DNA from: a virus
Reading direction: 5' to 3' (one strand)
Length of the DNA stretch: 64,000 nucleotides
Virus record (IMG/VR): IMGVR_UViG_3300026183_000827
The notes beneath the pieces are model-generated. The model had not been told where the DNA came from, did no database searches, and saw only the letters and a program-made list of their open reading frames with translations. The stretch's first letter is position 1. Each line of letters starts with the position of its first letter. The position numbers were made by a program, and so were the translations under genes. Positions 10,116-40,495 of the stretch are shown in pieces.

Positions 10116-10130
10116 ACCATAATAATTAAT

Positions 10131-10173: not shown

Positions 10174-10174
10174 T

Positions 10175-10921
10175 ATGAATCATAATACTGTTGTAAGATC
10201 TCTTCAAATTTTAACTCACTTACTTGCACTATACGGTGTGTATTATAGTGTAGTAAATTCAGCATGGGCATTTTTAGGAACGAGTGTATTAGTATACTGG
10301 TTTATAGGAGTCTTTGGAATTAATATAGGATATCATAGACTGATATCACATAGAAGTTTTGAAACATACAAACCTATTGAATATTTACTTGCACTAATAG
10401 GTTGCATAACTTCAATTGGTAGTCCATTAGCATGGAGTGTTTTACATAGGCATCATCACGGTCATGCTGAAAAAGATACAGATGTTCATAGTCCTTATCA
10501 TTTAGGATGGTTTAGAGCCTGGTTTGGATTGTGGAGTGTTCCGCATATTAGTCCTAAGCTGTCAAGAGATCTAAGAAAAATAAAGTTTTATAGATTTACA
10601 CACAAATATTATTTACATATAATTGCTTTATATATTCTAATACTTGCACTAATTGACCCGTTATTTATTGTTTATGTGTATGCAATACCTGCTGTATTAG
10701 TGCTACATAGCACTAGCGCAATAATAGTAATAGCTCATATGCACGGATACAAAACACATAACACAGATGATGAAAGTCGTAACAGTTGGATTGCAAGTTT
10801 AATTACACTAGGTGAAGGTTGGCACAACAATCATCATAACAATAGTAAAGCATGGAACAACCAAGAGCGTTGGTGGGAACTTGATCCGCCTGCTTGGATA
10901 ATTAGAGCTATAAAAAAATGA
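10175..10921 (+). CDS. Membrane fatty-acid desaturase (delta-9/OLE1/DesC-like), copy 1
   Basis: His boxes YHRLISH, HRHHH, GEGWHNNHH; WWELDP; hydrophobic segments. Start set at ATG 10175 (GGAG SD). Confidence 0.9.
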   Translation: MNHNTVVRSLQILTHLLALYGVYYSVVNSAWAFLGTSVLVYWFIGVFGINIGYHRLISHRSFETYKPIEYLLALIGCITSIGSPLAWSVLHRHHHGHAEKDTDVHSPYHLGWFRAWFGLWSVPHISPKLSRDLRKIKFYRFTHKYYLHIIALYILILALIDPLFIVYVYAIPAVLVLHSTSAIIVIAHMHGYKTHNTDDESRNSWIASLITLGEGWHNNHHNNSKAWNNQERWWELDPPAWIIRAIKK

Positions 10922-11664
10922 ATTACGGAACAAAAGTACAATTATTAACATTGTTAAATCATATAGTTTTAGCTATTGGCATTTACTATACTAATAACTG
11001 GTCACTATTATGGTTAGGATTATTAATGTATTTGTTTGTAGGACTTTTTGCAGCAAATATATCTATGCATAGATATTTGTCTCACAGAAGTTTTGAAACT
11101 GGACCATTGCGTGAAAAGTTTTTAAAATATGTAAGTGTACTTGCATGTTTTGGAAGTCCTTTAAGTTGGGCTGCGCTACATAGACATCATCACAAAACAA
11201 GCGACACAGAATTAGACATACAAAATCCAAAAACTATAGGAGCTCTCAGAAGCTGGAGTAGCTTATATCCCGAAACAAATATAAGTCCAAGACTTGTAGG
11301 CGATATGTTACGAGACAAAGATATAAAATTTATTCATAATAATTATTTTACAATTATAACAGTAATTTATATTATATTATTTTTAATTGATCCTATGTTA
11401 CTAGTTTGGGGATTTGTTTTTCCAGCAGTATTAAGTTTTCACGGAGCGGCAGCAATAGGTGTTATTCCACATTACCAATGGGCTGGTTATAAAGTAGTAG
11501 AATCTAATGATGACAGTGTTAACAGTCCACTTGCATGTCTTTTAAGTTTAGGTGAAGGATGGCACAACTATCATCACTATAAATCTGCAGATTATAGACA
11601 CGGACACAAATGGTGGGAATTAGACCCTAGTGCTTGGATAATTGAAAGGATATTTTTAAAATGA
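10918..11664 (+). CDS. Membrane fatty-acid desaturase (delta-9/OLE1/DesC-like), copy 2
   Basis: MHRYLSH, HRHHH, GEGWHNYHH, WWELDP. Confidence 0.9.
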   Translation: MNYGTKVQLLTLLNHIVLAIGIYYTNNWSLLWLGLLMYLFVGLFAANISMHRYLSHRSFETGPLREKFLKYVSVLACFGSPLSWAALHRHHHKTSDTELDIQNPKTIGALRSWSSLYPETNISPRLVGDMLRDKDIKFIHNNYFTIITVIYIILFLIDPMLLVWGFVFPAVLSFHGAAAIGVIPHYQWAGYKVVESNDDSVNSPLACLLSLGEGWHNYHHYKSADYRHGHKWWELDPSAWIIERIFLK

Positions 11665-12218
11665 CACCAGATGATTACTATATGAACTTTGCCTACGTTA
11701 GTGAAAAATGGCTGTTTGAATATATGACAGAACATTATGCTAACTCAGATAACACTGAATGGTTAGAACAAATAGAAGACGAACTTAAACATACTAAAAT
11801 GTGTCAAGGTGCTTTACGTAAACAAGGTGTTGACTATTACGACGATACAAAGTATAGTATAGAAGCAGCAATATATGGAGATTTAGGAAATTTTTATCCT
11901 ACTAATGATGAAGAGTTTAGTGCGCTAAGTTGGATTGTAGAAAAACGTGCATTATTCTTGTATCGTTATTATATGCGTAACGGCAATAATGATTTGTATA
12001 GAAAAATTACACAAGGTATTATTGACGATGAAATGAAACATGTCGGCTTTCATAACGAAGAAATAACACCTTCACACAAACGTATAAGAGAAATTGATAA
12101 AGCAATATTTACAGCATTTAACGAAACTTATGGACGCAAAGGAATGTTTGGTCAACAATTTTGGGAAGATTTGTTTACTGGAAAAATTAAGGACAAAGTA
12201 GATGTCAAACTACCTTGA
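11661..12218 (+). CDS. Ferritin-like di-iron carboxylate protein
   Basis: Two E...DExxH units: SEKW...EDELKH and VEKRA...DDEMKH. Confidence 0.65.
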   Translation: MTPDDYYMNFAYVSEKWLFEYMTEHYANSDNTEWLEQIEDELKHTKMCQGALRKQGVDYYDDTKYSIEAAIYGDLGNFYPTNDEEFSALSWIVEKRALFLYRYYMRNGNNDLYRKITQGIIDDEMKHVGFHNEEITPSHKRIREIDKAIFTAFNETYGRKGMFGQQFWEDLFTGKIKDKVDVKLP

Positions 12219-12966
12219 TTACGTTTCAAATACTAGTTGGGTAGATATTACTCCAATGTTTTCAGTTTGTCCTGTAGATAAAATTATGCAGGAAATACAT
12301 TCCGTTGAAAATATGTTTTTAGAAGAACGTGATCCAGAACAGTATAAAACTATGCAAGAAAAAGGTGCTACAGGCATCGGTGAACATTTTGATAATCAAA
12401 AGAATTGGGAAGCTGTAACATTGTTTAGTAGTACAGGTGACTACAAAGATATTTTAACACAGGGAATTTTACCTAATCAAGACCTTAAAACATATATGGA
12501 AAGTTTTAGAAACTTACGTAATCATAAATGGACACAACTAGCAAAATTAATGCCAAATACTGTAAAATGGATTAAAGATGAAATTGGTCAGTATATGCAA
12601 TTTAGTTATATTAAAATTGCTAAACTAGGACCTGGTGGAGATGTGCCTGTGCATACAGATGTTCCGCACGAAGATTTTGATTTTTTAAATACACAGAATA
12701 CATATAATATGCTTAATAGTTTTTTAGTAGAACTAAACTTTCCTAAAGGCGTTACAGCATGGCACGACGGTGTTGAATTGCCATATCAACAAGGAAGTAT
12801 TATATTTTGTAACCAAAGTAAATCACATGGCACAATAAATCGTAGTAATGAAACACGATATAATTTAAGAATACAAGGTTTGCATAATAAAAAATTTAGA
12901 AACGACTTAATGCAATTGGCTAAAAATTACAATATGTACCCTTCTACAAGCACTCAATACCTGTAA
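12202..12966 (+). CDS. Asp/Asn beta-hydroxylase-like 2OG-Fe(II) oxygenase
   Basis: AKLGPGG.VPVHTD, distal SHGTIN...RYNL. Confidence 0.75.
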   Translation: MSNYLDYVSNTSWVDITPMFSVCPVDKIMQEIHSVENMFLEERDPEQYKTMQEKGATGIGEHFDNQKNWEAVTLFSSTGDYKDILTQGILPNQDLKTYMESFRNLRNHKWTQLAKLMPNTVKWIKDEIGQYMQFSYIKIAKLGPGGDVPVHTDVPHEDFDFLNTQNTYNMLNSFLVELNFPKGVTAWHDGVELPYQQGSIIFCNQSKSHGTINRSNETRYNLRIQGLHNKKFRNDLMQLAKNYNMYPSTSTQYL

Positions 12967-13526
12967 TGTACACATACAAAAATTATCCAATAAACGAATA
13001 TTACAAAATAAAACCAGATGTAGAATACATACTGGAAAGAATGTACAAAGATAAATTAAATTCAAATTATACTAAAGAAAATTTTTATAAAGACGATCAT
13101 TTATTTGTAAGTATAATTTATAAGTATAATCAACCTTTCGAAGCTAGTACTGTTATTACACGTAATATGTTTAATAATGGTTGTAGAGTTTTAAATAGAT
13201 TAATGGTTACTCCAACATGGCGAGAAAAAGGAACAGCAGTTGGTATACCAGAAACAACTCTTACTATGCTAAAAAGTCAAATAGAATTTGCTAGAGATAA
13301 ATTTGATTTTGCATTTATAAGCAGAGAATTTAATACTTATAGATTTTGTAAAAGATTTGCAAAGGATGCAACTAATTTTTTGGACGAACCTTGGCATTAC
13401 GAAACTGATAGATTTTTAGTTTGTAATGATACAAGTAAAAATAGTCCGTGTTGGCAAAACATAGCATGGACTAAATTTACAAATCTTGATATTTTTCCTT
13501 TACAACCTCAGTCATCTTACCACTAA
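12966..13526 (+). CDS. Putative GNAT-fold N-acyltransferase
   Basis: RVLNRLMVTPTWREKG resembles GNAT motif A (V.P..R..G); size fits. Confidence 0.45.
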   Translation: MYTYKNYPINEYYKIKPDVEYILERMYKDKLNSNYTKENFYKDDHLFVSIIYKYNQPFEASTVITRNMFNNGCRVLNRLMVTPTWREKGTAVGIPETTLTMLKSQIEFARDKFDFAFISREFNTYRFCKRFAKDATNFLDEPWHYETDRFLVCNDTSKNSPCWQNIAWTKFTNLDIFPLQPQSSYH

Positions 13527-14316
13527 GACACTCTCCATTTGCACTCATAAAAATTAAATCTGTAGGATTATCTGTACATTGTAATTGTACATCTCTATAA
13601 TTATTCCACAAATAATCGTTAGGATACTTTTTCATAAGCATTGCTGCTAATGCCATGTTTCCAACAGGCAAATATGCAACATCATTTAAAAGTCCTTTGT
13701 CAATAATATAATCTTTGGCATACCATAAACCTAGACGATTAAGAGCTAATCCAAAGTTTTTAGAAAAACTAAAAAATATATTAGTCGCGCTTTTAGGTAT
13801 TTTAAATTCAACAGGCTTACTAGCACCATAGTATGCACAATCTAGCCAGCATTCAATTTCTTCTTGATGACACTTTTCTAATAATTGATGTTGTAATTCG
13901 TGTATTTTGCCATCTCTACAAAAAGGCAAACTAGTTACAAATACGCAATCGTCAGTTAAATCATTAATATCTTTAACCCATACAATGTCAATACCATGCT
14001 TGCTTGCAATAAAAGGATACCAACGATATTCGTTTTCAACCATTGCAAGTTTCTTATTTGTATGCGATAAAGCTATTAAACACTGCGTTATAGCTTCTGT
14101 ACTACCGTTTACAGCGTACTTTCCAAAGTTTGGTAGTTTGATGCCAACCCAGGATTCAAACGTGTTGTAGAAGTCATCTATAGCTTCAAAACGTTTACTT
14201 ACGTCCCAATCTTGATCAAAATAAAAATACTTTTGCATAGGAAAATTCATAATATCATTATGAATTTCAGGCGGTCTAAACGGTACTATTACATCTGTGA
14301 TCGATTTGATTCTCAT
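13477..14316 (-). CDS. PLP-dependent fold-type I aminotransferase/decarboxylase-like enzyme (short)
   Basis: NGSTEAI, WLDCAY (PLP Asp), SFSKNFGL..NRLG (Schiff-base Lys). Confidence 0.8.
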   Translation of the reverse strand: MRIKSITDVIVPFRPPEIHNDIMNFPMQKYFYFDQDWDVSKRFEAIDDFYNTFESWVGIKLPNFGKYAVNGSTEAITQCLIALSHTNKKLAMVENEYRWYPFIASKHGIDIVWVKDINDLTDDCVFVTSLPFCRDGKIHELQHQLLEKCHQEEIECWLDCAYYGASKPVEFKIPKSATNIFFSFSKNFGLALNRLGLWYAKDYIIDKGLLNDVAYLPVGNMALAAMLMKKYPNDYLWNNYRDVQLQCTDNPTDLIFMSANGECLSGKMTEVVKEKYQDL

Positions 14317-14894
14317 TATAAATCCTTCCTTAATAAATTATCACATAGATATTCAAAGCTATAACTTTCATCCCAATGAAAGCTCATTACAATCCTAGAC
14401 CCAGGATTTTCATTTATAACTTGATGCCACGCTGTTGCCCTAAAAAGGCCGCCGCAAGTTGTACTAGGATACCAACGTTCGCACACTTCATAATTGCCTT
14501 CTTCGCTATCCCAAAATTTAACATAACTCTTTTCCCATTCTCCATAAACAGGAAAATTGAGTGCTCCTACACGTTCAGCAATATCAACATGTATTGGTCC
14601 TATACCTGCATCGCTTTTTATAAAAGCAGCATATTTAGGTTCTATTGCTAGTTTATCTGTAATAGGTTTAAAATATTCCCATCTTGAATCATCTTTATCG
14701 CAATAATGCATCTGTATACCATAAGGGCCAATATTAAACCAACCTTTGTTAGCAGCAAGTATATTATCAACTTGTGGTTCATTTGAATGAAAGGGGTCAG
14801 GCAGATTATCTAACAAATATTTTTGTCCAAATTCTAAAGTACATTGTAATTCAGGAAATTCTTTAAAATAGATCATTTGTTTCTCTCCAATCAC
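14316..14894 (-). CDS. 2OG-Fe(II) oxygenase / cupin
   Basis: PIHVD, WHQVIN...RIVMSF; start may be ATG 14876. Confidence 0.65.
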   Translation of the reverse strand: MIGEKQMIYFKEFPELQCTLEFGQKYLLDNLPDPFHSNEPQVDNILAANKGWFNIGPYGIQMHYCDKDDSRWEYFKPITDKLAIEPKYAAFIKSDAGIGPIHVDIAERVGALNFPVYGEWEKSYVKFWDSEEGNYEVCERWYPSTTCGGLFRATAWHQVINENPGSRIVMSFHWDESYSFEYLCDNLLRKDL

Positions 14895-15582
14895 TCTCCA
14901 TTATCATTCCTGTAAGAGTAACACGAATATTTTCGCCTGCATCTTTATCTACTGCTGTAATACCGTGTACAACTTTTTTATTGATTAAAATTAATCTATT
15001 AGGTTTAGGAGAAACAAATGTACCTAGACCGTAATCAATTATAGGCTGATATTTTTTTCCTTGTTGAAACATTTCCATAGGACTATTGGTATCTGTATAA
15101 CAATCATGATGAACAGTACCATCTTCTAAAGGTAAAACTTGTTGATAATTTATACTACCTAATGGCAATATTAAAAGTGTGCTATCCCAATTTATTTGCC
15201 AATGCCTATGCAAATAATATGTATAGGTAGTAAATCCTAAATCATTATGCCATGGATTTTTACTACCTACAGGATATGCATGACACCGCATTGCAATTTC
15301 TATATAATCTTTAGCGAAAGGTTGTGCTTCAGGACATGTATCAAGAAATTTTGTAAAGTGTTTAAACCATAAATCACTGTTATCATTAAAAGGACCTTTG
15401 GTTAACCAACGTTTATTGTTCTTGTAATTTGCGCCATCAGTATAGTGCCAAAATTTATCATCAGCACCTGTTTGACTCCACTTGTCTACTTGTACTTGAT
15501 TCCAAATTTTATCCCAAATATCTTGTGGCAAAAAATCATCTATTACAAGTGCTTCAGGTGTATTCATTACAATGTTATACAT
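14863..15582 (-). CDS. 2OG-Fe(II) oxygenase (prolyl-hydroxylase-like)
   Basis: PWHND, PKPNRLI...VHGI...RVTL. Confidence 0.75.
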   Translation of the reverse strand: MYNIVMNTPEALVIDDFLPQDIWDKIWNQVQVDKWSQTGADDKFWHYTDGANYKNNKRWLTKGPFNDNSDLWFKHFTKFLDTCPEAQPFAKDYIEIAMRCHAYPVGSKNPWHNDLGFTTYTYYLHRHWQINWDSTLLILPLGSINYQQVLPLEDGTVHHDCYTDTNSPMEMFQQGKKYQPIIDYGLGTFVSPKPNRLILINKKVVHGITAVDKDAGENIRVTLTGMIMESDWRETNDLF

Positions 15583-16609
15583 AGGACTCTCTATCGCCTT
15601 CTCTAGTAAGGTCTAGTGTTACACAATGTAAACCGCTATCCCAAAAGTACTTATGTCTAAAATCAAAAGGAATCATATCAACACCGTGTTTTTTGAGCTT
15701 GTGCTCTACATCAGGATCGTAGCCGTTAGTTATTACAGTATTAGCATCTATACTTACTACATTAATATCAAATACAGTTTCATCTACATAGCCTATCCAA
15801 TGATCTAACCAACTTGTAACTTTGTCTTTGTAAAAGTGTTGAATTTTAATATCATTAAAATAATCAGGTAAAGGCTTACGTTCTAGTTTAATATAGTCCC
15901 AACTTTTTAATTCTTCTGGTATTGCGCCCGGATCCCAACAAAATAATAGTCCAGGCTTAATAAGTGCAATTTTTCCGTCTGCATGTCCTGTTCTTGGTAT
16001 TTCTGTCCACTTAACATTGTAACCAATATTGCGTTTAATCCAGTCTAATCCTGCTTGTGTTCCCCTGCCATGTTGCCCTGGAGCATATGGTTGTGTATGT
16101 AACAGTGTATCTCCGCATTTAATAATATTTGCAGCATGCCAGAGTATTTGTCCTTCTAGTTGTTCATACTCTTTGTAGTCGCTTGTTAGTAATGGCTTAG
16201 GCATACTAATATAGTTACGACCTTGTTTAAACTTTTCTAACATAATATCTAGAAAGTAATCACTTTCAGTATACCTATTACAATCTCCGCCAATAGTTCC
16301 AAGAATAGTATTTCCGTATACTACATGAAAATCTCTAGGACATATAGCAGGATAAGGAAACTTAGAATTCCATGTTCTTGTATTTTCTTTTAGTAAAGGA
16401 AGTTTCCTAGGCCTATGTACTTGTACACCGTGTTGTTCAAATATTCCTGCAAGTTTAGAAAAGTCTTGTTCAGTCTCTTCTAATATTTTGCCCATGCCAT
16501 CTACAAATTCGTTATCGTTAAATTGATTTAACGAATCTAGATCGTATGTAGATCCTACTATAACTTCTTTTAATTTATCCCATTCTGTCCAAATCATACC
16601 TGGTTCCAC
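15575..16609 (-). CDS. Amidinotransferase (glycine / inosamine-phosphate amidinotransferase family)
   Basis: EWDKLKEVIVG, CPRD, GHADG (catalytic His), SGLHCVTLD (catalytic Cys). Confidence 0.85.
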   Translation of the reverse strand: MEPGMIWTEWDKLKEVIVGSTYDLDSLNQFNDNEFVDGMGKILEETEQDFSKLAGIFEQHGVQVHRPRKLPLLKENTRTWNSKFPYPAICPRDFHVVYGNTILGTIGGDCNRYTESDYFLDIMLEKFKQGRNYISMPKPLLTSDYKEYEQLEGQILWHAANIIKCGDTLLHTQPYAPGQHGRGTQAGLDWIKRNIGYNVKWTEIPRTGHADGKIALIKPGLLFCWDPGAIPEELKSWDYIKLERKPLPDYFNDIKIQHFYKDKVTSWLDHWIGYVDETVFDINVVSIDANTVITNGYDPDVEHKLKKHGVDMIPFDFRHKYFWDSGLHCVTLDLTREGDRESYV

Positions 16610-17223
16610 TGCGATGCAACATATTCTCCGCGAGAGGCTACATTCATTCCTATGCTTATTCTAATATCGTCTGATACATTACGCTCTGTTTTGTGTCGTA
16701 TATAGCCAGGAAACATTATCAAGTCTCCTTGCTGTATTTTCATTCTTTGTTCAAATTCATCAAAAGGAAAATTAATAGGTTGTGAACCTAATAATGCTTC
16801 TAAAGGATGCTGTATAATTAAGTCTCCCGAACCTTCTGTTTTATCAAGATAGTATACTGCTGTAATAGGTGTAGGGCCATGAAAATGACTAGGAACATAA
16901 CCATCTTTTCTACTAATAGTAGCCCACATTTCTTGTATATAAGGTTTAATGTTAGGATGATAATTTAGATCTTTCCAATACTCTGCAATACAAGGACTAA
17001 TAGCGTTAACTAGCTGATCAGTTTCTTTCCAATTTTGCATGTGGCGTTCTATACCATATGTGTTTATAGTACTAGCATCGTTCATACCTACAACACTTAT
17101 ATGATCGCCGTAACTATCAATATTTAATAGTTCAAGTACCCGTGATCTAAAACTTGACACATCTATACCTTGTAAATTCTTTTTATAAACAGGTATACTA
17201 AAAAGTTGCTGTACATTACTCAT
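16594..17223 (-). CDS. Putative 2OG-Fe(II) oxygenase
   Basis: LFSIPVY N-terminus, SHFHG, GDLIMFPGYIRH...RISI. Confidence 0.8.
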   Translation of the reverse strand: MSNVQQLFSIPVYKKNLQGIDVSSFRSRVLELLNIDSYGDHISVVGMNDASTINTYGIERHMQNWKETDQLVNAISPCIAEYWKDLNYHPNIKPYIQEMWATISRKDGYVPSHFHGPTPITAVYYLDKTEGSGDLIIQHPLEALLGSQPINFPFDEFEQRMKIQQGDLIMFPGYIRHKTERNVSDDIRISIGMNVASRGEYVASQWNQV

Positions 17224-17656
17224 TGTTCATAATCTCTTTATAATAATCTTCAGGCCAATCATCATAATACGTTGTATCTAAAAGTACTTGTCTTTTTATT
17301 TCGATATCGTCTTTTTTTTGTATTAGAACACAGTTTGTAAAATTTTTAACAAAATGACCACTTTGTGGTGTACTTAAAAAGTATAGTAAGTGTGGATTTA
17401 ATTTTCTTAAATCCGCTAATTCATCTTCTATTCCAGAAGTAAACTCTCCTAACCATGCAATACCTATATCATAGTTTTCTTCATCAAATTCTAAAAACTC
17501 TCCGTATATACCTCTAGGAGCATTTATAAACTGTATACGGTCTTGCAATCGTGCTTTACGTGCAAATGGACATATAGGATATCCATTTCCTCTAGTGGGT
17601 TCTATTTTGTCTTGTACCCATTCTAGAAATTGGGTTTTAAAGGTCTCAAAAGTCAT
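17216..17656 (-). CDS. Hypothetical protein with PICPFA motif
   Basis: 146-aa ORF; CPFA motif reminiscent of DUF1415-like proteins; first gene after a TATAAATA motif. Confidence 0.7.
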   Translation of the reverse strand: MTFETFKTQFLEWVQDKIEPTRGNGYPICPFARKARLQDRIQFINAPRGIYGEFLEFDEENYDIGIAWLGEFTSGIEDELADLRKLNPHLLYFLSTPQSGHFVKNFTNCVLIQKKDDIEIKRQVLLDTTYYDDWPEDYYKEIMNNE

Positions 17657-17667
17657 AATTATAGAAA

Positions 17668-17675
17668 TATTTATA
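17668..17675 (-). promoter_or_regulatory. T4 late-promoter consensus TATAAATA
   Basis: Reverse complement of TATTTATA in the 32-nt gap, 12 nt upstream of the ATG at 17656; no clear SD. Confidence 0.6.
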
Positions 17676-17688
17676 GATAAGGTATTTT

Positions 17689-29030: not shown

Positions 29031-29041
29031 TTTTTACTCCT

Positions 29042-29063
29042 ATAATATACGTATATTATTTAT
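29042..29063 (-). promoter_or_regulatory. ATAAATA motif overlapping an 18-bp perfect palindrome
   Basis: ATAAATA (-) 29057-29063; ATAATATACGTATATTAT 29042-29059; AGGAG SD follows. Confidence 0.55.
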
Positions 29064-32930: not shown

Positions 32931-33553
32931 GGACAGTTCTCTAACAGATAATTTGCAAATAATTGGTGTGTTTTTGGACCTGGATGATTTTTATCTTGTG
33001 CATAATCAATACTATGATCGGCTAAACAAGTATTCAAATAATTTTCTTTGTTTATAATGTTTTTTTCGATATCTATGCCGCCTGGAGGTGCAGTGTGTAA
33101 AACTTTAGTTATATTGTTATGTTTGAGTAAAAAGTCTGCATAATTTATGTACCAGCTAGTGGTTTTTTCATTGTTGTATGAACTATAAAACATTTTATAA
33201 TACGTAGTTGATACATAGTCTTTTTTCCAAGGCCCAAGATCTATAGATTTCATATAATTTTTTCTAAATTCATTGCCTAATATACAATCTCGTTCCATAA
33301 AACTCCATTGTAATATAACTGTGTCATCAGGTTTTATTAAATCTAAATATGTTTCTAATGCACTTAAAATCCATTTATTACTTTTTCCAGGACGGGCACA
33401 ATTTTTTACTTCTTTTATATTTAAATAATCAGCAAGCAAATTAACATATACTAATTTACTAGGTTCAGGACCTGCATTGTGCTTTCCTACTATACAATCT
33501 GCAAGTCCATGACCATATGTATAACTACACCCAAACGCAAATAATCTAGCCAT
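32915..33553 (-). CDS. SGNH/GDSL hydrolase-like protein (esterase or acyltransferase)
   Basis: FAFGCSYTYG block I, N.A.PG.SN, D..HP block V. Start set at 33553 (GGAGG SD). Confidence 0.7.
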   Translation of the reverse strand: MARLFAFGCSYTYGHGLADCIVGKHNAGPEPSKLVYVNLLADYLNIKEVKNCARPGKSNKWILSALETYLDLIKPDDTVILQWSFMERDCILGNEFRKNYMKSIDLGPWKKDYVSTTYYKMFYSSYNNEKTTSWYINYADFLLKHNNITKVLHTAPPGGIDIEKNIINKENYLNTCLADHSIDYAQDKNHPGPKTHQLFANYLLENCPWLKE

Positions 33554-34811
33554 ATAGTGCCTCCAACAGATCTTTCCTAAGATCAGCATGCATATTATTT
33601 TGTCTGTACATCCAATGATAAAAATTATGTGTCAAAATTTCATGACAGTCACTGTATAACTTTTTCAATTCAGCATGATCCATAGAAACAATCCTGCTTA
33701 TTTCTTTAAATGCAGTTTGTAACCGTTCTGTATTATCAAAAATGTTATCATAACTTTCATCTATTATCCCATCAAAGGTTTTATATCCCAAACTTCTAAA
33801 ATTTTTTAAATCATTATGAGCACCAATTAAAATAAAAGGTTGCCAATAAATTATAGGTTTAAATATTTTTTCACTAAAAAAACTTTGTCCATTGTGAGAA
33901 TATGTTTCAGTAACAATATGTAACCAACTATTATAAAATTTGTCAGGTTTAGTATCTACAGTAGGATTATCATCTGCTGCATTTATTCCATCTTGATATA
34001 CTAAAGGTAATTTATCTAAAAAATCCACATTAAAATTTTTCCATATACCTGGATATAACTCTTCACAATTCTTTAAAGATGTTTCGTAATAAACAGTATT
34101 GCCGTTATCAGTTTCTTTACAGCAAGTTAATATACCATCATTATAATAGTTATTTGTATATAAAAATTCTGACAATAATAATCTATGAGCGTGAGGACGC
34201 CTATTTAAACAAATAAATTTATGTTTTCTATTACGTTCGTACGGTTGTAATACTCGATACATAGATGCATAATCAAAAAGTGCTCTATCATTGCGCATAT
34301 GTTGTTCCCACCAATTATAATAAACTGATTTGGTATTAAAGTCAGGTGTTAATATATTTCCACTACAAATAACAAAATTTTGATAATTTAAATTATACTT
34401 TTCGATAAAGATATCAATTATATTTTTAAAATGTGTATTGAAACTCCAACCCTCCATTACATTAAGAATTAAAATTTTACATGTTCCTTTTCTAATTCTT
34501 TTTAAATGCTCAGGTTCGATATATGCAATTTCTTTCCAAGTTTTTGCTAAATTTGGATGAGGCTGAAATGGCACAGGATAATAATATTTTTTATTTTTAA
34601 CTTGCTTTAAACTAGTTACTGGTTGATAAACATTTGTTGCAGGAAATCGTGTTGCTCCTAATGAAATATAAGGATCAACATGTGCATGAAATCCTTCAAG
34701 GTGTTCTTTTTTAAGTCCACTATGAAACCAATATAATGGTTCATTAAAATCAGTTCTCTTCCATTTAGCTTCTGTTAAATCTTGTCTCGCCCAAATTAAA
34801 ACTTTATCCAT
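33546..34811 (-). CDS. Putative GT-B-like glycosyltransferase/sugar-modifying protein, paralogue of 30244-31500
   Basis: KFICLNRRPHAHR, IVTET, SEKIFKPI, PFILIG, GYKTF..IIDESYD. Confidence 0.5.
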   Translation of the reverse strand: MDKVLIWARQDLTEAKWKRTDFNEPLYWFHSGLKKEHLEGFHAHVDPYISLGATRFPATNVYQPVTSLKQVKNKKYYYPVPFQPHPNLAKTWKEIAYIEPEHLKRIRKGTCKILILNVMEGWSFNTHFKNIIDIFIEKYNLNYQNFVICSGNILTPDFNTKSVYYNWWEQHMRNDRALFDYASMYRVLQPYERNRKHKFICLNRRPHAHRLLLSEFLYTNNYYNDGILTCCKETDNGNTVYYETSLKNCEELYPGIWKNFNVDFLDKLPLVYQDGINAADDNPTVDTKPDKFYNSWLHIVTETYSHNGQSFFSEKIFKPIIYWQPFILIGAHNDLKNFRSLGYKTFDGIIDESYDNIFDNTERLQTAFKEISRIVSMDHAELKKLYSDCHEILTHNFYHWMYRQNNMHADLRKDLLEALYG

Positions 34812-36207
34812 CTGCTAAATCCTTGCACCGGTAATAAAATTTTGTAAAAGTAGGAAATGTACTTAAAAAATCTTTTTGTCTTCTAAAATCATACGCACTA
34901 AAAAATTTATAAAATTGTTTCATTTCTCTTGACTTGTCTCTATCTAAATTAGATTTAACAAAATCAATTGCTCGTCGCATTTTTTCAATTTCTGTATCTT
35001 GGAAGCCGTGATGTCCAACTAATTGTTCCTTATTAGATAACATAAATGTTAAGTCTTCTTCCATAATACGCAATTCATTTTCGCCTGCAAGTGCAACTGT
35101 TTGCCAATCAGGATAAGTTAGATAACTAATATCTAACCAAAGTTTTTTCCAAGTATTAGAACCATTTGCCTTTCTCCATTCTAGAAGCCATTCTAATAAT
35201 TTTCTAAAATTTGGAATACTTAATAGATTGTAGGTTGCCATAATGATTGTTTTAGCTTTCCAATCTAACATAGGTATTTCTGTTGTAACTCTATTTAGAT
35301 TAACTAAAAATCTATCAAACTCCATTCCGTCACGTATGTATTCTGCTTGTTCACCAAAACTTTCAGCACTTGTATATAAATCAAAATTTTTAATTTTATT
35401 ATTAAGTATTAGATCATTTGCAATTTCTATAAGTCTGTCTATAAACACATCTTGTACTCCAAGATTGGTATTAATGCCTAGTACAAGATTAGGATTTGGA
35501 TTTTCTTGTATATATTCTAATATACGCCAAGTATGTTTACTTAACAACGGTTCGCCGCCTGTGATACGAAATACTTTTAAGTTTGTATAAAGCTCAGGCC
35601 AAATTTTCCAAAATGCATCAATGTAAGGATTTTCTTCCCTTGCAAGTATAGGTATAAGATTTTTAGATTTCATGTAATCTAAATTGTGTACTTCGTAGTC
35701 TCCTATATCGTAACCTCCGCACTGTTTAACGTCCTCCATCCATTTGCTAGAAATTTGAGGACTACAATACATGCAAGCAAAATTACAAGTATTATTAAAA
35801 CTAACTTCTACATATGTAGGTAAAAACTTTTCATCTAAAGGATTAAGTTGTATTTTTTCTAACTGGCCTTCATTCCAATCCTCACCGCTTTTGTAATGTC
35901 TATCACTTAGATGTCCTTGATTTAAGTTTTCGATATTCCAGCAGTAATTGCATTCTTCTGGCTGTTCGCCTGCTAACATTTTTTTACGCTGTTCAATTTT
36001 ATAAATTGAATTATGTAATGCATGAGGATTTCTTTTTAGTTCATCTAACGGAATAAAATGTGGAGCAGGATGGTGACAACTGTGCGTATGTCCGTTATGT
36101 AGGTGCATTGTTACTTGTGTCCACTTAGCAAGACACATTGAACAACTTATATTATTAAGATTTTCTCTTGCACGTTCTGCATTAGAGTTATACGAGCTTT
36201 TTGACAA
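34804..36207 (-). CDS. N-terminal twitch-domain radical SAM protein
   Basis: SMCLAKW...SCHH...CNYCW, CNFACMYC, TGGEPL. Confidence 0.88.
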   Translation of the reverse strand: MSKSSYNSNAERARENLNNISCSMCLAKWTQVTMHLHNGHTHSCHHPAPHFIPLDELKRNPHALHNSIYKIEQRKKMLAGEQPEECNYCWNIENLNQGHLSDRHYKSGEDWNEGQLEKIQLNPLDEKFLPTYVEVSFNNTCNFACMYCSPQISSKWMEDVKQCGGYDIGDYEVHNLDYMKSKNLIPILAREENPYIDAFWKIWPELYTNLKVFRITGGEPLLSKHTWRILEYIQENPNPNLVLGINTNLGVQDVFIDRLIEIANDLILNNKIKNFDLYTSAESFGEQAEYIRDGMEFDRFLVNLNRVTTEIPMLDWKAKTIIMATYNLLSIPNFRKLLEWLLEWRKANGSNTWKKLWLDISYLTYPDWQTVALAGENELRIMEEDLTFMLSNKEQLVGHHGFQDTEIEKMRRAIDFVKSNLDRDKSREMKQFYKFFSAYDFRRQKDFLSTFPTFTKFYYRCKDLADG

Positions 36208-36217
36208 GAGTGCTCCT

Positions 36218-37135
36218 TTATTCTATATCAATAATTTGGTCTAATCTATTTGGATTAGTGTACACCGCTTTAAAAAATTTACTTTGAGATCCATTTAATG
36301 GCATAGTAGATATAGGAATTTCTAATTTTTCAATAAGTATATCTCCTAAGAGTTCTATTTCATTTTCTAAATTTTCTTCTGTCACAGTTTCTATTAACTC
36401 ATCCCAGTGTTCGTTTAAATAATCAAAATCACGAACATTTACATAATCCCAATCTGTACACATAGTTCGCCATAAGCCTTCACGGGCACCGTATATAGCC
36501 CATAGACCATTTTCTGCATCGGCACCTACCATCAACCAAATGTAAAGACGATGTAAATTTTTCCAATGATTTTTATGAAACTCTTCTACAGTTACTTTTA
36601 CACCACGATCAAGAGCCATCTTAACGCCTTCTCTAAATCCTGCTCTCCATGCTTGATGCGGAGTAGCATTGTTATATACATCTGAAAAACAACTATTTTG
36701 TTGAATGTATCTAACATCCCAGCAAAAATCTACTTGCGCATGTGCATTTTTTGGATCTGCATTTTCATGAGTACGCATGCGTAGTACAAAGTCTTTGGGC
36801 CAGCACTTGATCCCTCCGTTACCGTACATTAATCCATTAACTACATTTTTTCCTGCCCAGCTAATTACACAACTTGTTAAATCTTCGTGTTCATCAAAAT
36901 CAATTTCTTGATTTAAAAAATTTTCGTCTATTATATTATCGCCGTCAATTGTAATAAAACGATCTGTCTCACTAAGTCTAGCACAGGCTTTGTGTGCGGC
37001 ATCTGATCCTTTTACACCATGTACACGTTTTGCCCACGGAACTTTTGAACACAAGTCTGCATAGTTTTTTTCTGCGTTTGGTTCGTCGTATGAAAGGTAT
37101 ATAATATCATAATCTATCGGCTTAAATTTACTCAT
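36218..37135 (-). CDS. GT-A-like glycosyltransferase, paralogue of 27134-27808
   Basis: DIIYLSYDEPNA, TIDGD (DxD), YGNGGIK, WRAGFRE. Confidence 0.6.
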   Translation of the reverse strand: MSKFKPIDYDIIYLSYDEPNAEKNYADLCSKVPWAKRVHGVKGSDAAHKACARLSETDRFITIDGDNIIDENFLNQEIDFDEHEDLTSCVISWAGKNVVNGLMYGNGGIKCWPKDFVLRMRTHENADPKNAHAQVDFCWDVRYIQQNSCFSDVYNNATPHQAWRAGFREGVKMALDRGVKVTVEEFHKNHWKNLHRLYIWLMVGADAENGLWAIYGAREGLWRTMCTDWDYVNVRDFDYLNEHWDELIETVTEENLENEIELLGDILIEKLEIPISTMPLNGSQSKFFKAVYTNPNRLDQIIDIE

Positions 37136-38476
37136 TTAGTCAATTACCTCATGTCCATAATTTTCAAAGTATTTTGTTGTGTAAACACTTGTTTCATATT
37201 CTGTAGGGTTCCAATTATTATCAAATGGAACATAACATTCTTTGTTATCAATTAATTCTTGTACATTTATAGTAATAGACTTATACAAAATGTTTGGATC
37301 ATATTTTTCTGTCACACTAAAATATACTACATCATCAGTAGAATAACCAGACAATTTTAAAAACTTTTTAGTATACGGGTTTAACATAAATTCCCAGCGT
37401 TTTAATTTATTGTTTTGCCTAATTACTAAGTCAAATGTTTTATCTATACTATATTTGTATAGTTCTTTACCTATTAAAACTTTTGAACCATTTTTTAAAT
37501 TTTCTACATTTTCTATATGTAAAAAATCTTTATCAACTGAATAAATGTCACTACTTGTTAAATTGATTACATTAATTTCGTCGTCTTTAACTTCAATTAG
37601 ATTATTCCCTGAATAAAAGAAAATCTCTCCAAACTCTCTGTTATGCGCAATCTCATGTAAATCTCGCATATACAGTTTATTATAGTCTAAAAATTTTTCA
37701 CCTATTTTAGTAACATCTTGAAATTTTAATATTTTATTTTCATCGTTATATAAAATTACATCTTCAAGAATAACTTCACAATTTTCCTTTTTAAAATTAG
37801 TGTTACTTTTTTGATCTTTGATAAATTTATAAATTTTTCCTTTATAGAAAACGTGTTGTCCAGTTACATGTTCTAATTCTTTATACCAAACGTCTACATG
37901 TACTCCTTCAAAAATAGGTTTATTAACTTCTAATGATACTTTATGATCTGTTGTAGACGCTGTTGTAAGTTTTACATCTTCTACAAACACTGAAGCACAA
38001 TGAGAGTTAAAATCTTCATTTTCTTTGTTAGTTTCTAATAATTTATAAATGCTTCCTTTGTAATATACAAGTTGATTTTTTTGGTATGAATCTTGTTTAA
38101 TCCATATATCAATAATTGCACCATCATAAATTTTATCAAAATTTGTGTGGCTGTCCTTAGATACACTAGTTCTAGTAAATTCATGTATAAAAGATCCTGC
38201 AGAATTGTAATGATCTTCGTAATTTAATTCTTTTACAACTACTTGTTTTGAAGCAAAATCATATACAACAGTAAAATCAGAGACACTTTTAGAGCCTTCT
38301 AAAATAGGTTTTACGATGTCTGATGAAACTGCAACTACTTCATATTCTGTTTCTAGTGGACGACGATTTGTAATTTTATAAATTTTGTGATCTTTTTTAT
38401 CGTAAGAAACATAGCTTTCGTTTTGTTCGGCTTGTTGTACTTTTATATTTTTTAGTAATTCTTTTAGATTAGACAT
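37136..38476 (-). CDS. Hypothetical protein with two internal CBM5/12-like repeats
   Basis: DIW....Y...QLVYYKGSIYK...EDV and DVW....H..GQHVFYKGKIYK...EDV. Confidence 0.65.
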   Translation of the reverse strand: MSNLKELLKNIKVQQAEQNESYVSYDKKDHKIYKITNRRPLETEYEVVAVSSDIVKPILEGSKSVSDFTVVYDFASKQVVVKELNYEDHYNSAGSFIHEFTRTSVSKDSHTNFDKIYDGAIIDIWIKQDSYQKNQLVYYKGSIYKLLETNKENEDFNSHCASVFVEDVKLTTASTTDHKVSLEVNKPIFEGVHVDVWYKELEHVTGQHVFYKGKIYKFIKDQKSNTNFKKENCEVILEDVILYNDENKILKFQDVTKIGEKFLDYNKLYMRDLHEIAHNREFGEIFFYSGNNLIEVKDDEINVINLTSSDIYSVDKDFLHIENVENLKNGSKVLIGKELYKYSIDKTFDLVIRQNNKLKRWEFMLNPYTKKFLKLSGYSTDDVVYFSVTEKYDPNILYKSITINVQELIDNKECYVPFDNNWNPTEYETSVYTTKYFENYGHEVID

Positions 38477-39308
38477 TTAGTAATACCTTGTAACGTTCTA
38501 ATACAGGCGTTTTTTCTATAAATTCATTTTCAGTATAGTGTAGTATACCTGTTTGAAAATAGTTTCCTATTTTTATTTGACAGTTAGAATTTATATAGCA
38601 ACCAACCTTATCTAACCAGCTTTTTGTAACACTATCCCAACCTTGACAATATGGCTTCATATGCACGAATGTAGGATTTTTTACAAATGGATTAGTTATT
38701 TGATCTACACAATTTAAATTAACAGCAGCAATAGCAGCACATACATCCATACTAGGAAAACTAGGTGTAGATTTTTTTACAACAGATGAATAAAATTTAC
38801 CATAATCTTTTACTACTGTTTCTAATTCTTTATAAAAGTTCATTGCAAAATCGTTTTTCTTAAAATAATGAAACCCAGAAAAAAGATTTGGAAGATTATT
38901 TTCTATAAATGCTTTTCTATAATATGATGTATCAGCAATATTACCTCTATAATCATAAACATTACTAGTATAATATACATCGTAATTTTTTAAAAATGAC
39001 CACCAATTATCTATGTTTTCTAACACTAGCATATCAGTGTCTAAAACTATAGTTTCTTCATAAGGAGTTGCGTGGAATAATTTCCATCTATTTTCTATCT
39101 TCCATTCTTTGTCTTCTGCATCATCACCAAATGGTATAGGAATAACTTTATCAAAAAGATCTACATATTGCTTAGGAATATCATCGTTAGTAACTAAACT
39201 AATTTTGTAATTATTATTAGCTCGCAAACTCATTGCTAGCAAACATGCTTGCATTATATAATTGCCAGACTTTGAATTTTGTGCAAGTACTAAGAAACCT
39301 TTACTCAT
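38469..39308 (-). CDS. GT-A glycosyltransferase (GT8/mannosyltransferase-like)
   Basis: TPYEETIVLDTD (DxD), SGFHYFKK, VHMK. Confidence 0.7.
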   Translation of the reverse strand: MSKGFLVLAQNSKSGNYIMQACLLAMSLRANNNYKISLVTNDDIPKQYVDLFDKVIPIPFGDDAEDKEWKIENRWKLFHATPYEETIVLDTDMLVLENIDNWWSFLKNYDVYYTSNVYDYRGNIADTSYYRKAFIENNLPNLFSGFHYFKKNDFAMNFYKELETVVKDYGKFYSSVVKKSTPSFPSMDVCAAIAAVNLNCVDQITNPFVKNPTFVHMKPYCQGWDSVTKSWLDKVGCYINSNCQIKIGNYFQTGILHYTENEFIEKTPVLERYKVLLNV

Positions 39309-40158
39309 AACCTACCTCATCTATAATTCTAGATAAACTAAACTTATTCATTACATGCATATTCATATTTTTGGTATTAATTGCATAATATTCGCCTAAA
39401 TAATCTTTTTTAGCAACTAAAAACAGCATACTTTCGTCGTTCATATTCCACAATATGTCTTGATCTGTAATGTAAAGTAATTTACCAGGCATCTCTCCAC
39501 AAAAGCTACCTTTGTTAAAACCATTTAATATATGCAATGCAATACTAAATGCAAAGTCGTTTCTAAATAAGTTTGATTGTATTTGGTATACTCTTCTATA
39601 ATGATTCCATTCTTCTTGTATATGTTTTATTAAATCAAAAAATAATTTGTTGTCATCTGTTTTTCTAAAAAACACACAAGTTGCCCAGTAAAACTCGCAG
39701 CCGCTATCACTTATAAACTCAAATTCTTTTTGATTTCTTGTTCCGCTTAGTTCGTAAGATTTTTTATACAATAGTAAATCTTGATCGCTATCAAAACAAT
39801 TTAAAAACAAATCATTATTAATTACAAAATCACTATCTAATAAAAGAGTTTCGTCATAAGGTGATAAATCATATGCAGACGATCTTGATGAATTTTTAAA
39901 AGTATCAGTCTTTGATGCAAGACCGCCGTCATAAAAGTTTCTTGAGTTTGACTTGTGTTCGTAGTCAACTTTTATAATTTTATCAAAAATATTTTTATCA
40001 AACGTTTTTTCTAAATACGCAACATTGTCTGTAATAATAGATGTAGGTAGATTTAGATATTTTTTTACTCGTTTGGCTAAAAACACTGCTTGTTTTACAT
40101 AGTCAATGTTATTGTTATTTCTAGCAATTACTAATACACCTTTACTCATTTGCGTCAA
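39301..40158 (-). CDS. GT-A glycosyltransferase (GT8/mannosyltransferase-like), paralogue of 38469-39308
   Basis: SKG.LV.A.N, SPYDETLLLDSD, RNDFAFS, HVMNK. Start may be the second Met. Confidence 0.7.
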   Translation of the reverse strand: MTQMSKGVLVIARNNNNIDYVKQAVFLAKRVKKYLNLPTSIITDNVAYLEKTFDKNIFDKIIKVDYEHKSNSRNFYDGGLASKTDTFKNSSRSSAYDLSPYDETLLLDSDFVINNDLFLNCFDSDQDLLLYKKSYELSGTRNQKEFEFISDSGCEFYWATCVFFRKTDDNKLFFDLIKHIQEEWNHYRRVYQIQSNLFRNDFAFSIALHILNGFNKGSFCGEMPGKLLYITDQDILWNMNDESMLFLVAKKDYLGEYYAINTKNMNMHVMNKFSLSRIIDEVGYE

Positions 40159-40495
40159 CTAAATTAGGCACCGATCTTTGCTTTTTTAAATTCATAAATT
40201 TGTTATAATATTCATTAGATGCTGTAAAATAAACATCTATAATATTAGAATGAAAGTCATCTAAATCTGTAATTTGAACAGGTATTCCGTTATCGTCAAC
40301 TAAAACAACTTCAGTGTTATCTGTTGATAACAGAGTGTAACAAAAATTAATTAATTCTCTGGTTACTGTGAACTGAGCGCCGTTATGATAATATAAAAGA
40401 TCTTGATTGTACGTTTCTTTTAATAATCTTTTTTGATTGTTAAAAGTAACCATATAGTTGCTAAAATCAAGAGCTTTTTTAAGTCTTTCGTCCAT
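40142..40495 (-). CDS. Hypothetical phage protein, first gene of the long minus-strand island operon
   Basis: 117-aa ORF with AGGAG SD. Confidence 0.78.
   Translation of the reverse strand: MDERLKKALDFSNYMVTFNNQKRLLKETYNQDLLYYHNGAQFTVTRELINFCYTLLSTDNTEVVLVDDNGIPVQITDLDDFHSNIIDVYFTASNEYYNKFMNLKKQRSVPNLVDANE

Follow-up and report, generated by a model that had tools for sequence, protein, structure and literature searches.

A composite island of glycosyltransferase-like, radical SAM and tailoring genes between the fibre genes of an aquatic phage, with a possible role in virion-protein decoration

Introduction

Why should a phage devote some 30 kb between its fibre genes to tailoring enzymes? 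The question is raised by the IMG/VR virus record IMGVR_UViG_3300026183_000827, a stretch of 64,000 nucleotides (hereafter, the window) that consists of phage DNA with a G+C content of 30-38%. At positions 10142-40495 it carries an island of 37 open reading frames (ORFs) with almost no intergenic space in the ORF map. The original prediction, made from the sequence alone, had described this region as a dense block of 34 ORFs, nearly all for tailoring enzymes; the block is real, phage-encoded and tightly packed, although the number of ORFs is 37. The island is a composite, made of a conserved head and of a hypervariable cargo that is swapped or absent in relatives, and it is tentatively read here as a system that decorates virion proteins with glycans.

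Five ORFs lie on the plus strand (10142-13526) and 32 on the minus strand (13477-40495). The two units are convergent, with 3' ends that overlap at 13477-13526, and the only gaps on the minus strand are found at 17656-17689, 29030-29056 and 36207-36218. Genes are named below after their lower coordinate in the window.

A conserved head at a polymorphic site

The head module runs on the minus strand from 40495 down to about 33546, downstream of two fibre-like genes, and includes glycosyltransferase (GT)-like proteins and a radical S-adenosylmethionine (SAM) enzyme. Identities refer to RsoM2USA, a cultured Ralstonia jumbo phage (MG752970).

40566-44779, minus strand: two fibre-like proteins of the 41921 type, rich in Ser/Thr (23-24%) and proposed as acceptors; ATAAATA at 41893
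40525-40553, minus strand: sigma70-type promoter TTGACA-17-TATACT heading the island, 30 nt before 40495
40142-40495, minus strand: 117-aa acidic protein, first gene of the operon, no assigned function; RsoM2USA homologue 30%
38469-40158, minus strand: two GT8-like GT-A paralogues (38469-39308, 39301-40158); RsoM2USA 33-35%
37136-38476, minus strand: 446-aa protein with a repeated VYYKGxIYK-type motif, no known family
36218-37135, minus strand: predicted GT-A-fold transferase, paralogue of 27134; RsoM2USA 51%
34804-36207, minus strand: N_Twi radical SAM enzyme (NF033640, 307 bits), 39% identical to its paralogue 31485
33546-34811, minus strand: 421-aa putative GT-B-like protein, usually next after the head genes

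Contigs nearly identical to the window occur in at least 29 assembly blocks, and DNA of this phage was found in sequencing runs from 17 estuarine, freshwater and marine studies. A survey centred on 39301 gave 70 distinct loci out of at least 569 contigs with a homologue, and the counts that follow are over informative loci. Upstream of 39301 were found 40142 (56/56), a 41921-type gene (52/56, in all of which it sits directly upstream of the head) and fibre genes (50/56), while downstream 38469 and 36218 are each present in 49/49 loci, 37136 in 48/49, 33546 in 34/49 and an N_Twi radical SAM gene in about 30/49. Three large relatives (records of 64-187 kb, CheckV 18-53% complete) have the same head order. 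Rather than being scattered with no conserved co-occurrence, an outcome that the original prediction had named as counting against it, the head genes are syntenic in 48-56 of 49-56 relatives and in RsoM2USA as well.

The site itself is bordered by fibre genes, as the original prediction had also claimed, with an Mtd_N protein (Pfam) on the left and a tail-fibre module (PHROG) on the right.

8556-10115, plus strand: left-flank fibre-like protein with an Mtd_N domain (PF18454, E 4.9e-10); ATAAATA box at 8520
44789-50258, minus strand: three paralogous tail-fibre genes (44789, 46302, 48207) of PHROG tail-fibre families, right flank

Homologues of the 8556 fibre gene border the island site in relatives too. 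The backbone gene at 5700-7052 has 499 relatives in IMG/VR, and 37 of the loci, those with 8 kb or more of sequence beyond its downstream end, were examined. In four of these (L139, L169, L175 and L180) the homologue of 8556 is followed at once by the convergent fibre genes 44789/46302/48207, with neither the island nor the 41921-type gene at the site, and the other backbone loci have different cargo at the same place. The replacement can be followed within the island in one relative (L003), which keeps 31485-26461, 24336, the gene of protein X (see below), a PP-loop gene and 17689, and is without 25478, 23392-19879, 13477-17656 and the desaturase operon; at its own positions 9694-16797 it carries instead a P450, an enzyme of the tryptophan-halogenase family, an AMP-binding fragment of 259 aa, a radical SAM protein of 673 aa and a methyltransferase.

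Proteins of the head module

The products of 39301 and 38469 show a GT-A N-terminal pattern with DSD/DTD and have an Atlas feature score of 0.95 to GT8/Mannosyl_trans3/Nucleotid_trans clusters; neither gave a GT match in Pfam, NCBIfam or PHROG. For the family of 27134 and 36218, an alignment of 17 sequences, in which the DxD motif is invariant (D57, D59), gave an AlphaFold2 (AF2) model with a pLDDT of 91.9, which Foldseek matches (probability 1.0, E 7e-5) to the GT-A transferases WrtF, RmlT, SunS, PBCV-1 A64R (2p6w, 2p72) and GalNAc-Ts. The GT-B leads for 33546 and its paralogue 30244 are weak: one of the 1298 homologues of 33546, a fragment, carries PF04101, the C-terminal motif is of E..EK type, and the Atlas score for GT10 (0.80) does not exceed chance. 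All these GT-like proteins are acidic (pI 4.9-5.9), and the adjoining 41921/40566 proteins contain 23-24% Ser+Thr. A DUF4214-like block is common to the 435-aa and 952-aa fibre-like proteins, with 50% identity (41430-41792 and 42995-43375).

The 37136 protein has three copies of the VYYKGxIYK-like motif, which we take, as an impression of our own, to recall carbohydrate-binding repeats. Searches of PHROG, NCBIfam and Pfam gave no match for 12966, 21623, 26461, 27134, 30244, 33546, 36218, 37136 and 39301. Likewise, no significant match to PDB sequences was found by profile searches with the families of X (alignment A1), the methyltransferase (A2), GT-A (A3) and 33546 (A5), nor by single-sequence searches with 37136 and 13477.

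Radical SAM enzymes, PP-loop proteins and protein X

The variable part of the minus strand is rich in radical SAM genes, among which two PP-loop genes and the signature gene of this part, coding for protein X, are found.

31485-32930, minus strand: N_Twi radical SAM enzyme (NF033640, 327.7 bits)
22721-26464, minus strand: four consecutive radical SAM genes (22721, 23392, 24336, which is N_Twi-like, and 25478); PF04055 E 5e-15 to 3e-19
22444-22731, minus strand: Cys-rich domain of 95 aa encoded on its own, with homology to the N-termini of 23392 and 25478
21623-22447, minus strand: X2, diverged paralogue of X (21% identity, E 2e-5), which aligns in A1
20976-21623, minus strand: second PP-loop, QueC-like protein with SGGADS; PF06508 E 8.2e-6
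19879-21018, minus strand: radical SAM enzyme of SPASM/twitch type with 10 Cys and CNAACPQC; PF04055 and NCBIfam SPASM-family matches
18989-19882, minus strand: protein X, cyclophilin-like barrel with a helical insert
18255-18992, minus strand: PP-loop ATPase, QueC-like, with SGGADS and a Cys cluster; phrog_1550 E 2.3e-7, 31% identical to 20976

The CxxxCxxC motif is present in seven ORFs (19879, 22721, 23392, 24336, 25478, 31485 and 34804), so that all seven radical SAM enzymes of the original prediction are confirmed by Pfam/NCBIfam and by this motif. Two of them, 31485 and 34804, lie above the curated cut-off of NF033640 (N_Twi_rSAM, 170 bits) and 24336 falls just below it with 164.1 bits. 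This NCBIfam family is named without a known substrate or reaction; its relatives form more than 6000 clusters, almost all metagenomic, and nothing relevant on twitch-domain radical SAM proteins or on radical SAM enzymes in huge phages was found in the literature. Other claims of the original prediction need qualification. The free Cys-rich ORF at 22444 exists and is at most a candidate SPASM domain. The two proteins described as QueC-like do have the SGGxDS motif and a C-terminal Cys cluster as in the Zn-binding site of QueC, although their QueC scores are weak (20.8 bits for the equivalog TIGR00364, against a cut-off of 150.3), and no family match to the QueC companions FolE, QueD, QueE or DpdA/TGT was found among the island ORFs. 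Most of the remaining families that it listed were confirmed by hidden Markov model, structure or motif checks; the DegT protein turned out to be of half size, the SGNH, di-iron and pyridoxal phosphate (PLP) proteins stay sub-threshold, and the GNAT-like assignment is unsupported.

Protein X has 127 homologues and belongs to no Pfam family. In its AF2 model (pLDDT 93.7) about 135-141 residues align with cyclophilin-fold proteins (VIA Z 10-11.6), the Pictet-Spenglerases McbB and KslB being among the matches, and the helical insert (residues 57-149) has invariant H99, E103, N131, H135 and E138. Foldseek of this model against the PDB returned nothing at E <= 0.001, and the best match of an ESM Atlas shape search was a peptidyl-prolyl isomerase cluster with a TM of 0.39. 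A complex prediction of X with a 19879-type radical SAM enzyme scored 0.00, which gives no verdict and is evidence neither way. In a near-identical metagenome contig (L008, 7486-8376) X was called at 208 aa after a 264-nt gap, which may be a natural truncation.

Of the 81 X-centred viral loci, 70 include radical SAM genes (median 4, at most 9 per +/-10 kb), and 39 of the 59 dereplicated X genes directly abut one. The methyltransferase family is present at 53 of these loci, the GT-A family at 33, the cupin family at 31 and the PP-loop family at 29. Conserved families of small ORFs at the 81 loci, covered from 50 aa upwards and considered as precursor candidates for ribosomally synthesised and post-translationally modified peptides (RiPPs), were rejected as antisense artefacts, all being antisense to larger genes; no PqqD or RiPP recognition element match was found. 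In another relative, a 284-kb phage contig (GCA_902731415.1, L012, 14578-17395), the radical SAM/X block includes a carbamoyltransferase and borders on genes for a PP-loop protein, a thymidylate-synthase homologue and dihydrofolate reductase on the opposite strand.

Protein X is nearly, although not wholly, confined to viruses: among 185,579 species genomes it was found in only 9 short contigs of metagenome-assembled genomes (MAGs). One of these, from a Pseudobdellovibrionaceae MAG (GCA_043730825.1, L186, 9021-11407), is a true chromosomal setting, in which X and an N_Twi radical SAM gene stand by themselves as a pair, flanked by truB and rpsO in the housekeeping region rimP-nusA-infB-rbfA-truB / rpsO-pnp, with a flagellin gene about 7 kb away and no transferases nearby. 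A Polyangiaceae MAG contig of 70% G+C (L187, 10001-10957) has a lone X homologue (40% identity) beside a Ser/Thr kinase-FGE-sulfatase protein and OsmC.

Sugar and tailoring cargo

The other cargo genes of the minus strand code for sugar-nucleotide and tailoring enzymes, several of which are 2-oxoglutarate (2OG)-dependent oxygenases.

32915-33589, minus strand: SGNH/GDSL-like protein, sub-threshold (PF00657 E 0.0024), with a GCSYTYG block
30244-31500, minus strand: 418-aa paralogue of 33546 with a weak lead to GT-B
29652-30254, minus strand: hexapeptide-repeat acyltransferase; PF00132 E 5.6e-18
29056-29652, minus strand: half-size DegT-like protein of 198 aa with the Lys motif kept; PF01041 E 3.9e-14, above cut-off
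27801-29030, minus strand: nucleotide-sugar dehydrogenase; PF00984 and PF03721, TIGR03026 153 bits; ATAAATA at 29057
27134-27808, minus strand: predicted GT-A-fold transferase, paralogue of 36218 (AF2, Foldseek, VIA, invariant DxD)
26461-27150, minus strand: class-I SAM-methyltransferase-like protein with GGWxG..SxDID motifs (25-sequence alignment A2) and a weak thermospermine synthase match; ATAAATA at 27178
17689-18258, minus strand: oxygenase of the Asp/Asn beta-hydroxylase family (Asp_Arg_Hydrox); PF05118 E 3.6e-8, recurs in many relatives
17216-17656, minus strand: 146-aa protein, no assigned function (phrog_10325), whose gene comes first after the TATAAATA box at 17668-17675
16594-17223, minus strand: 2OG-Fe(II) oxygenase (2OG-FeII_Oxy_5); PF13759 E 4.1e-15
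15575-16609, minus strand: amidinotransferase of StrB1/HsvA/SxtG type; PDB 1bwd E 9.6e-23 over residues 8-343
14316-15582, minus strand: two cupin/2OG-like proteins (14316-14894, 14863-15582), identified only by an HxD..H-type pattern or a PHROG match (phrog_19810 E 6.6e-12)
13477-14316, minus strand: CobD/HisC-like protein, possibly a PLP enzyme (NCBIfam TIGR01140 E 1.2e-7, sub-threshold and far under cut-off)

The DegT-like protein has the same length in relatives, whereas a full fold-type I PLP domain has about 370 aa: in the alignment with 4zwv the SFQFKK Lys motif is aligned, and chain residues of about 90-178 (large domain) and the whole C-terminal domain are missing. Further full-length PDB matches of the amidinotransferase are 5wpi (E 4.7e-19) and 6u1r (E 9.7e-18). 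In the island as a whole, three Fe/2OG or cupin oxygenases are clear and two more are probable. Outside it, at 3922-4416 on the plus strand, the window holds a cupin-like 164-aa protein with an HVDH...H pattern, whose family is the one present in 31/81 X-centred loci, with 57 copies in total. The methyltransferase-like gene 26461 is 82% identical to its counterparts in L001 and L002, strains that are otherwise 95-100% identical, and this patch at 26461-27150 suggests local recombination inside the island.

Transmembrane (TM) prediction found no membrane protein in the island except two desaturases (described below), and it predicts soluble products for the whole minus strand. No flippase, polymerase, phosphoglycosyl transferase, transporter/exporter or lipid-carrier family was matched among the island ORFs. 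A pathway for O-antigen or capsule linked to undecaprenyl phosphate was accordingly rejected, with no initiating phosphoglycosyl transferase, flippase/ABC transporter or polymerase among these ORFs.

The plus-strand cassette

10142-11664, plus strand: two paralogous membrane fatty-acid desaturases (10142-10921, 10918-11664); PF00487 E 1.5e-14 and 3.1e-18, ATAAATA at 10148
11661-12218, plus strand: possible ferritin-like di-iron protein, sub-threshold (DUF455 and Ald_deCOase matches under cut-off)
12202-12966, plus strand: Fe/2OG oxygenase of the Asp/Asn beta-hydroxylase family; PF05118 E 3.6e-9
12966-13526, plus strand: 186-aa protein with no assigned function

The desaturases are 42% identical to each other and have 3-4 TM-like segments each. 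The last protein had been called GNAT-like in the original prediction, an assignment that finds no Pfam or PHROG match. The desaturase operon, a late unit in its own right and of opposite orientation, is absent from close relatives and probably works on acyl chains.

Transcription signals

Both signals noticed at the outset, a sigma70 promoter at the island head and late-type ATAAATA motifs inside it, were found. Perfect TTGACA-17-TATAMT sites number three in the window and all are intergenic, before the exonuclease gene, before 5700 and before 40495; the first two are on the plus strand, at 1457-1485 (TTGACA-17-TATAAT, exonuclease) and at 5658-5686 (TTGACA-17-TATACT, the vWA-type gene 5700-7052). 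The head promoter recurs in 2 of 3 diverged relatives (L185 and L184, with TTGACA-17-TATACT and TTGACT-17-TATAAT). A generic scan for the sigma70 consensus over 8-18.5 kb found 61 sites against 52.5 +/- 7.1 expected, which is not above chance.

The ATAAATA motif is depleted in the window (12 sites against 51 +/- 6.6 expected), and 9 of the 12 sites lie 12-36 nt upstream of same-strand starts, including those of fibre genes; inside the island it is found at 10148, 17668, 27178 and 29057. The longer TATAAATA is also depleted (2 against 16 expected), with one full copy at 17668, in the only sizeable gap. This pattern fits a T4-type late promoter, which would be avoided elsewhere by purifying selection. 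From these motifs we infer that a host-type RNA polymerase transcribes the head operon, presumably at an early stage, with late promoters adding to the expression of the internal units.

Flanks and phage lineage

On the far side of the left flank lie genes for an exonuclease, a MoxR-type ATPase and the vWA-type protein of 5700-7052. On the other side, a giant ORF of more than 4371 aa (50885-64000, minus strand) runs off the window; within its C-terminal 2000 aa, the residues from about 214 to 912 have matches among 'virion structural proteins' of jumbo phages of the Rak2/PA5oct/121Q type and of Vibrio phage 2.275.O, none of the matches is annotated VrlC, and gp14 is not inside the window. A megablast search with 20 kb against 50,697 phage records gave no match. 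Among IMG/VR records of relatives (G001-G006), fragments of 125-187 kb have a CheckV completeness of 35-53%, which implies a genome size near 350 kb; for the nearest record, of 49 kb, the completeness is only 6%. No match to the tail sheath PF04984 was found in three large relatives, and the sheath protein of RsoM2USA has a match in one record only, about 77 kb from the X gene of that record.

What the island may do

The genes of this locus, their folds and synteny, the presence/absence polymorphism of the site and the promoter motifs are observed; the interpretation that we favour for them, with reserve, is a system for the glycan decoration of virion proteins. The island would lie at a recombination hot-spot between two receptor-binding (fibre) gene sets of a giant aquatic myophage. 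Its head module would build a short oligosaccharide on a soluble acceptor, most likely the co-inherited, Ser/Thr-rich fibre-like protein of 41921/40566 type encoded immediately upstream; this acceptor is proposed because the synteny of fibre genes, 41921-type gene, 40142 and GT genes is strict and because the island and the 41921-type gene are jointly absent at the site in four relatives. The variable cargo would supply and edit the sugars. In particular, the nucleotide-sugar dehydrogenase, the mini-DegT protein and the acetyltransferase could lead to amino or uronic sugars, the PP-loop enzymes could perform amidation, the amidinotransferase, the Fe/2OG oxygenases and the PLP enzyme could add guanidino or hydroxylated substituents, and the methyltransferase could methylate, while five further radical SAM enzymes and X would carry out radical C-H chemistry, whose type is left unspecified. 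We infer that the transferases are active, that their products form one glycan and that its acceptor is a fibre-like protein. Glycan building is the best-supported chemistry (about six GT-like proteins, sugar dehydrogenase, acetyltransferase, amidinotransferase and PP-loop enzymes), and to this extent the glycan pathway of the original prediction stands, although it is not one dedicated 30-kb pathway, being divided into conserved head, variable cargo and separate desaturase unit. Soluble enzymes, the absence of lipid-carrier and export genes among the island ORFs, the acidic GT-like proteins and their Ser/Thr-rich neighbours also speak for virion decoration, and the glycosylation of virion proteins (capsid and tail tube) of mycobacteriophages offers a precedent (Freeman et al., 2023, as cited in PMC12619734).

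Several points weigh on the other side. The glycan and its acceptor are both putative. The match of the 27134/36218 model to GT-A structures (VIA Z 9-10.8) covers residues 1-140 only, and same-fold nucleotidyltransferases score alike, for which reason GT-A activity can only be surmised. Fibre proteins are often rich in Ser/Thr anyway. The head operon has an early/host-type promoter while the fibre genes have late boxes. The P450, tryptophan-halogenase and AMP-binding genes of relatives are not sugar enzymes, and since the bacterial X/N_Twi pair is without transferases, the radical SAM part need not act on sugars. Finally, soluble GT8 enzymes also act on lipid-linked lipopolysaccharide (LPS) cores, so that a target in the host envelope would be compatible with the scarcity of TM proteins.

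A remodelling of the host envelope, in which LPS or lipooligosaccharide core, lipid A or membrane lipids would be altered, for instance to block superinfection, has been proposed for GT8-rich islands of pelagimyophages with UDP-glucose dehydrogenase and radical SAM cassettes (PMC7029224). It would agree with the GT8-like 39301 and 38469, the two membrane desaturases, the oxygenases of the Asp_Arg_Hydrox (LpxO) family and the early-type promoter at the island head; yet no lipid-carrier, flippase, polymerase or export gene is found among the island ORFs, close relatives keep the rest of the island without the desaturase cassette, and the conserved adjacency to a 41921-type protein is left unexplained, so that we hold this explanation to be unlikely, if a serious one. 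It is rather improbable that the island has no common product at all, independent cassettes for glycosylation (the head), radical SAM/X chemistry, a guanidino compound and lipids having gathered at a permissive hot-spot. The overlapping or abutting minus-strand genes extend over 27 kb behind one conserved promoter, and genes of the radical SAM, methyltransferase and GT-A families accompany X at 33-70 of the 81 loci, both of which argue against such accretion, even though cargo is radically different among relatives with the same flanks, internal late promoters (29057, 27178, 17668 and 10148) divide the block into units, X and an N_Twi radical SAM gene stand alone in a bacterial chromosome, and one gene is only 82% identical between near-identical strains.

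Two further explanations place the product away from proteins and envelope. The StrB1-type amidinotransferase, the twitch-type radical SAM enzymes, the DegT-like protein and the transferases could together yield a soluble specialised metabolite made during infection, either an aminoglycoside-like pseudo-oligosaccharide or a peptide-derived compound, and the repertoire recalls aminocyclitol pathways of the BtrN/StrB1 type. Relatives add a P450, a flavin halogenase and an AMP-binding enzyme, and the hypervariability is like that of diversifying biosynthetic gene clusters. Against it, no carrier protein, core synthase (2-deoxy-scyllo-inosose synthase, non-ribosomal peptide synthetase or polyketide synthase), precursor peptide, exporter or self-resistance gene was found, and linkage to fibre genes would have no explanation, which makes a metabolite improbable. 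Even more improbable, in our estimate, is the hypermodification of nucleic acids, be it phage DNA (glycans on 5-hydroxymethylcytosine or 5-hydroxymethyluracil, 7-deazaguanines) or RNA. Phage GT-A enzymes do glycosylate DNA, and their clusters can adjoin structural genes (bioRxiv 10.1101/2023.12.21.572611); QueC-like PP-loop proteins, radical SAM enzymes of QueE size, the early-type head promoter, the thymidylate-synthase homologue adjacent in one relative (L012) and the position of the bacterial X/radical SAM pair inside a nusA-infB-truB-rpsO-pnp region point the same way. However, no Tet_JBP, FolE, QueD, DpdA/TGT, hydroxymethylase or kinase match was found among the island ORFs, the QueC score lies far under its cut-off, the GT-like proteins are acidic, and their motifs are DxD and not the R..DDD..EDY/F of the DNA GT-A group.

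If the decoration of fibre-like proteins is the right interpretation, receptor-binding proteins carry virus-made, strain-variable glycans, which bears on host-range prediction, on the evasion of phage defence and on hypervariable regions that under-recruit in metagenomes. A broader proposal, that giant aquatic phages carry a dedicated and rapidly diversifying system attaching radical-SAM-edited glycans (methylated, amidinated/guanidinylated and C-H functionalised) to their own fibre-like proteins, we consider possible but doubtful; it would represent a new class of virion post-translational modification, tuning host recognition or shielding the fibres, and would use the uncharacterised pair of N_Twi radical SAM enzyme and cyclophilin-fold X that is also present in predatory bacteria. 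Whatever the target, the island concentrates families without a known reaction (N_Twi radical SAM, X, half-size DegT and non-QueC PP-loop proteins), and X combines a confident model with no close solved relative.

Comparison with known systems

The original prediction knew of no characterised phage pathway of this composition, which is true biochemically, although hypervariable islands that are linked to fibre genes and carry GT8, UDP-glucose dehydrogenase and radical SAM genes have already been described for pelagi- and cyanomyophages (PMC7029224). The host recognition cluster (HRC) of pelagi- and cyanomyophages is hypervariable, lies in the structural region and has GT8 as its commonest family (Zaragoza-Solas et al., 2020, PMC7029224). 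It resembles the present island in combining tail fibres with glycosyltransferases, UDP-glucose dehydrogenase, radical SAM cassettes and Asp/Asn hydroxylases, and in varying between close relatives. The HRC is located between VrlC and the neck gene gp14 of a T4-like genome. The present phage is of another lineage, its giant structural protein and fibres matching jumbo phages of the Rak2/PA5oct/Atu_ph07/RsoM2USA type and not a T4-like VrlC; moreover, a strictly conserved head module and the signature protein X can be defined here. In tblastn searches with 31485, X, 27134 and 39301 against the 50,697 phage records no cultured cyano- or pelagimyophage was matched, the only matches being RsoM2USA and, for the radical SAM enzyme, two Vibrio phages.

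Behind its giant structural protein and fibre-type genes, RsoM2USA carries a shortened block (RsoM2USA_347-355) of about 8 genes, in which a 41921-like domain is followed by homologues of 40142, 39301, 38469, 36218, the N_Twi radical SAM gene, 27134 and 26461, with 30-51% identity, and in which X, PP-loop, sugar-nucleotide, amidinotransferase and desaturase genes are lacking. All genes of this block are annotated as hypothetical and are absent from the discussion of the corresponding paper (PMC8504454). A cultured phage thus carries a minimal version, which makes the question experimentally testable.

The nearest functional analogy is with virion glycosylation in other viruses, in which soluble GT-A and sugar-nucleotide enzymes (aminotransferase, acetyltransferase, dehydrogenase) decorate structural proteins. 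PBCV-1 A64R and the fibril glycan clusters of Megavirinae are examples of virus-encoded glycosylation, and the giant-virus clusters are, like the present island, clade-specific and variable. Unlike it, the mycobacteriophage, PBCV-1 and Megavirinae systems are without radical SAM arrays, PP-loop enzymes, amidinotransferases or X, and the acceptor is here a proposed one. Clusters for the sugar hypermodification of DNA also combine GT-A and GT-B enzymes, related to LPS and teichoic-acid transferases, with tailoring enzymes, and sometimes adjoin structural genes (Pyle et al., bioRxiv 10.1101/2023.12.21.572611); they depend on a homologue of 5mYOX/TET or thymidylate synthase close by, and their GT-A enzymes have R..DDD..EDY/F motifs, neither of which is found among the island ORFs. 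Four core glycosyltransferase groups have been reported in moraphages (PMC12619734), with which a kinship of this phage would be conjectural. With respect to the published islands, what differs here is the phage lineage, the lack of gene-level homology to cultured T4-like marine phages, the defined head, the presence/absence polymorphism at a fixed site and the structural description of X from its predicted model.

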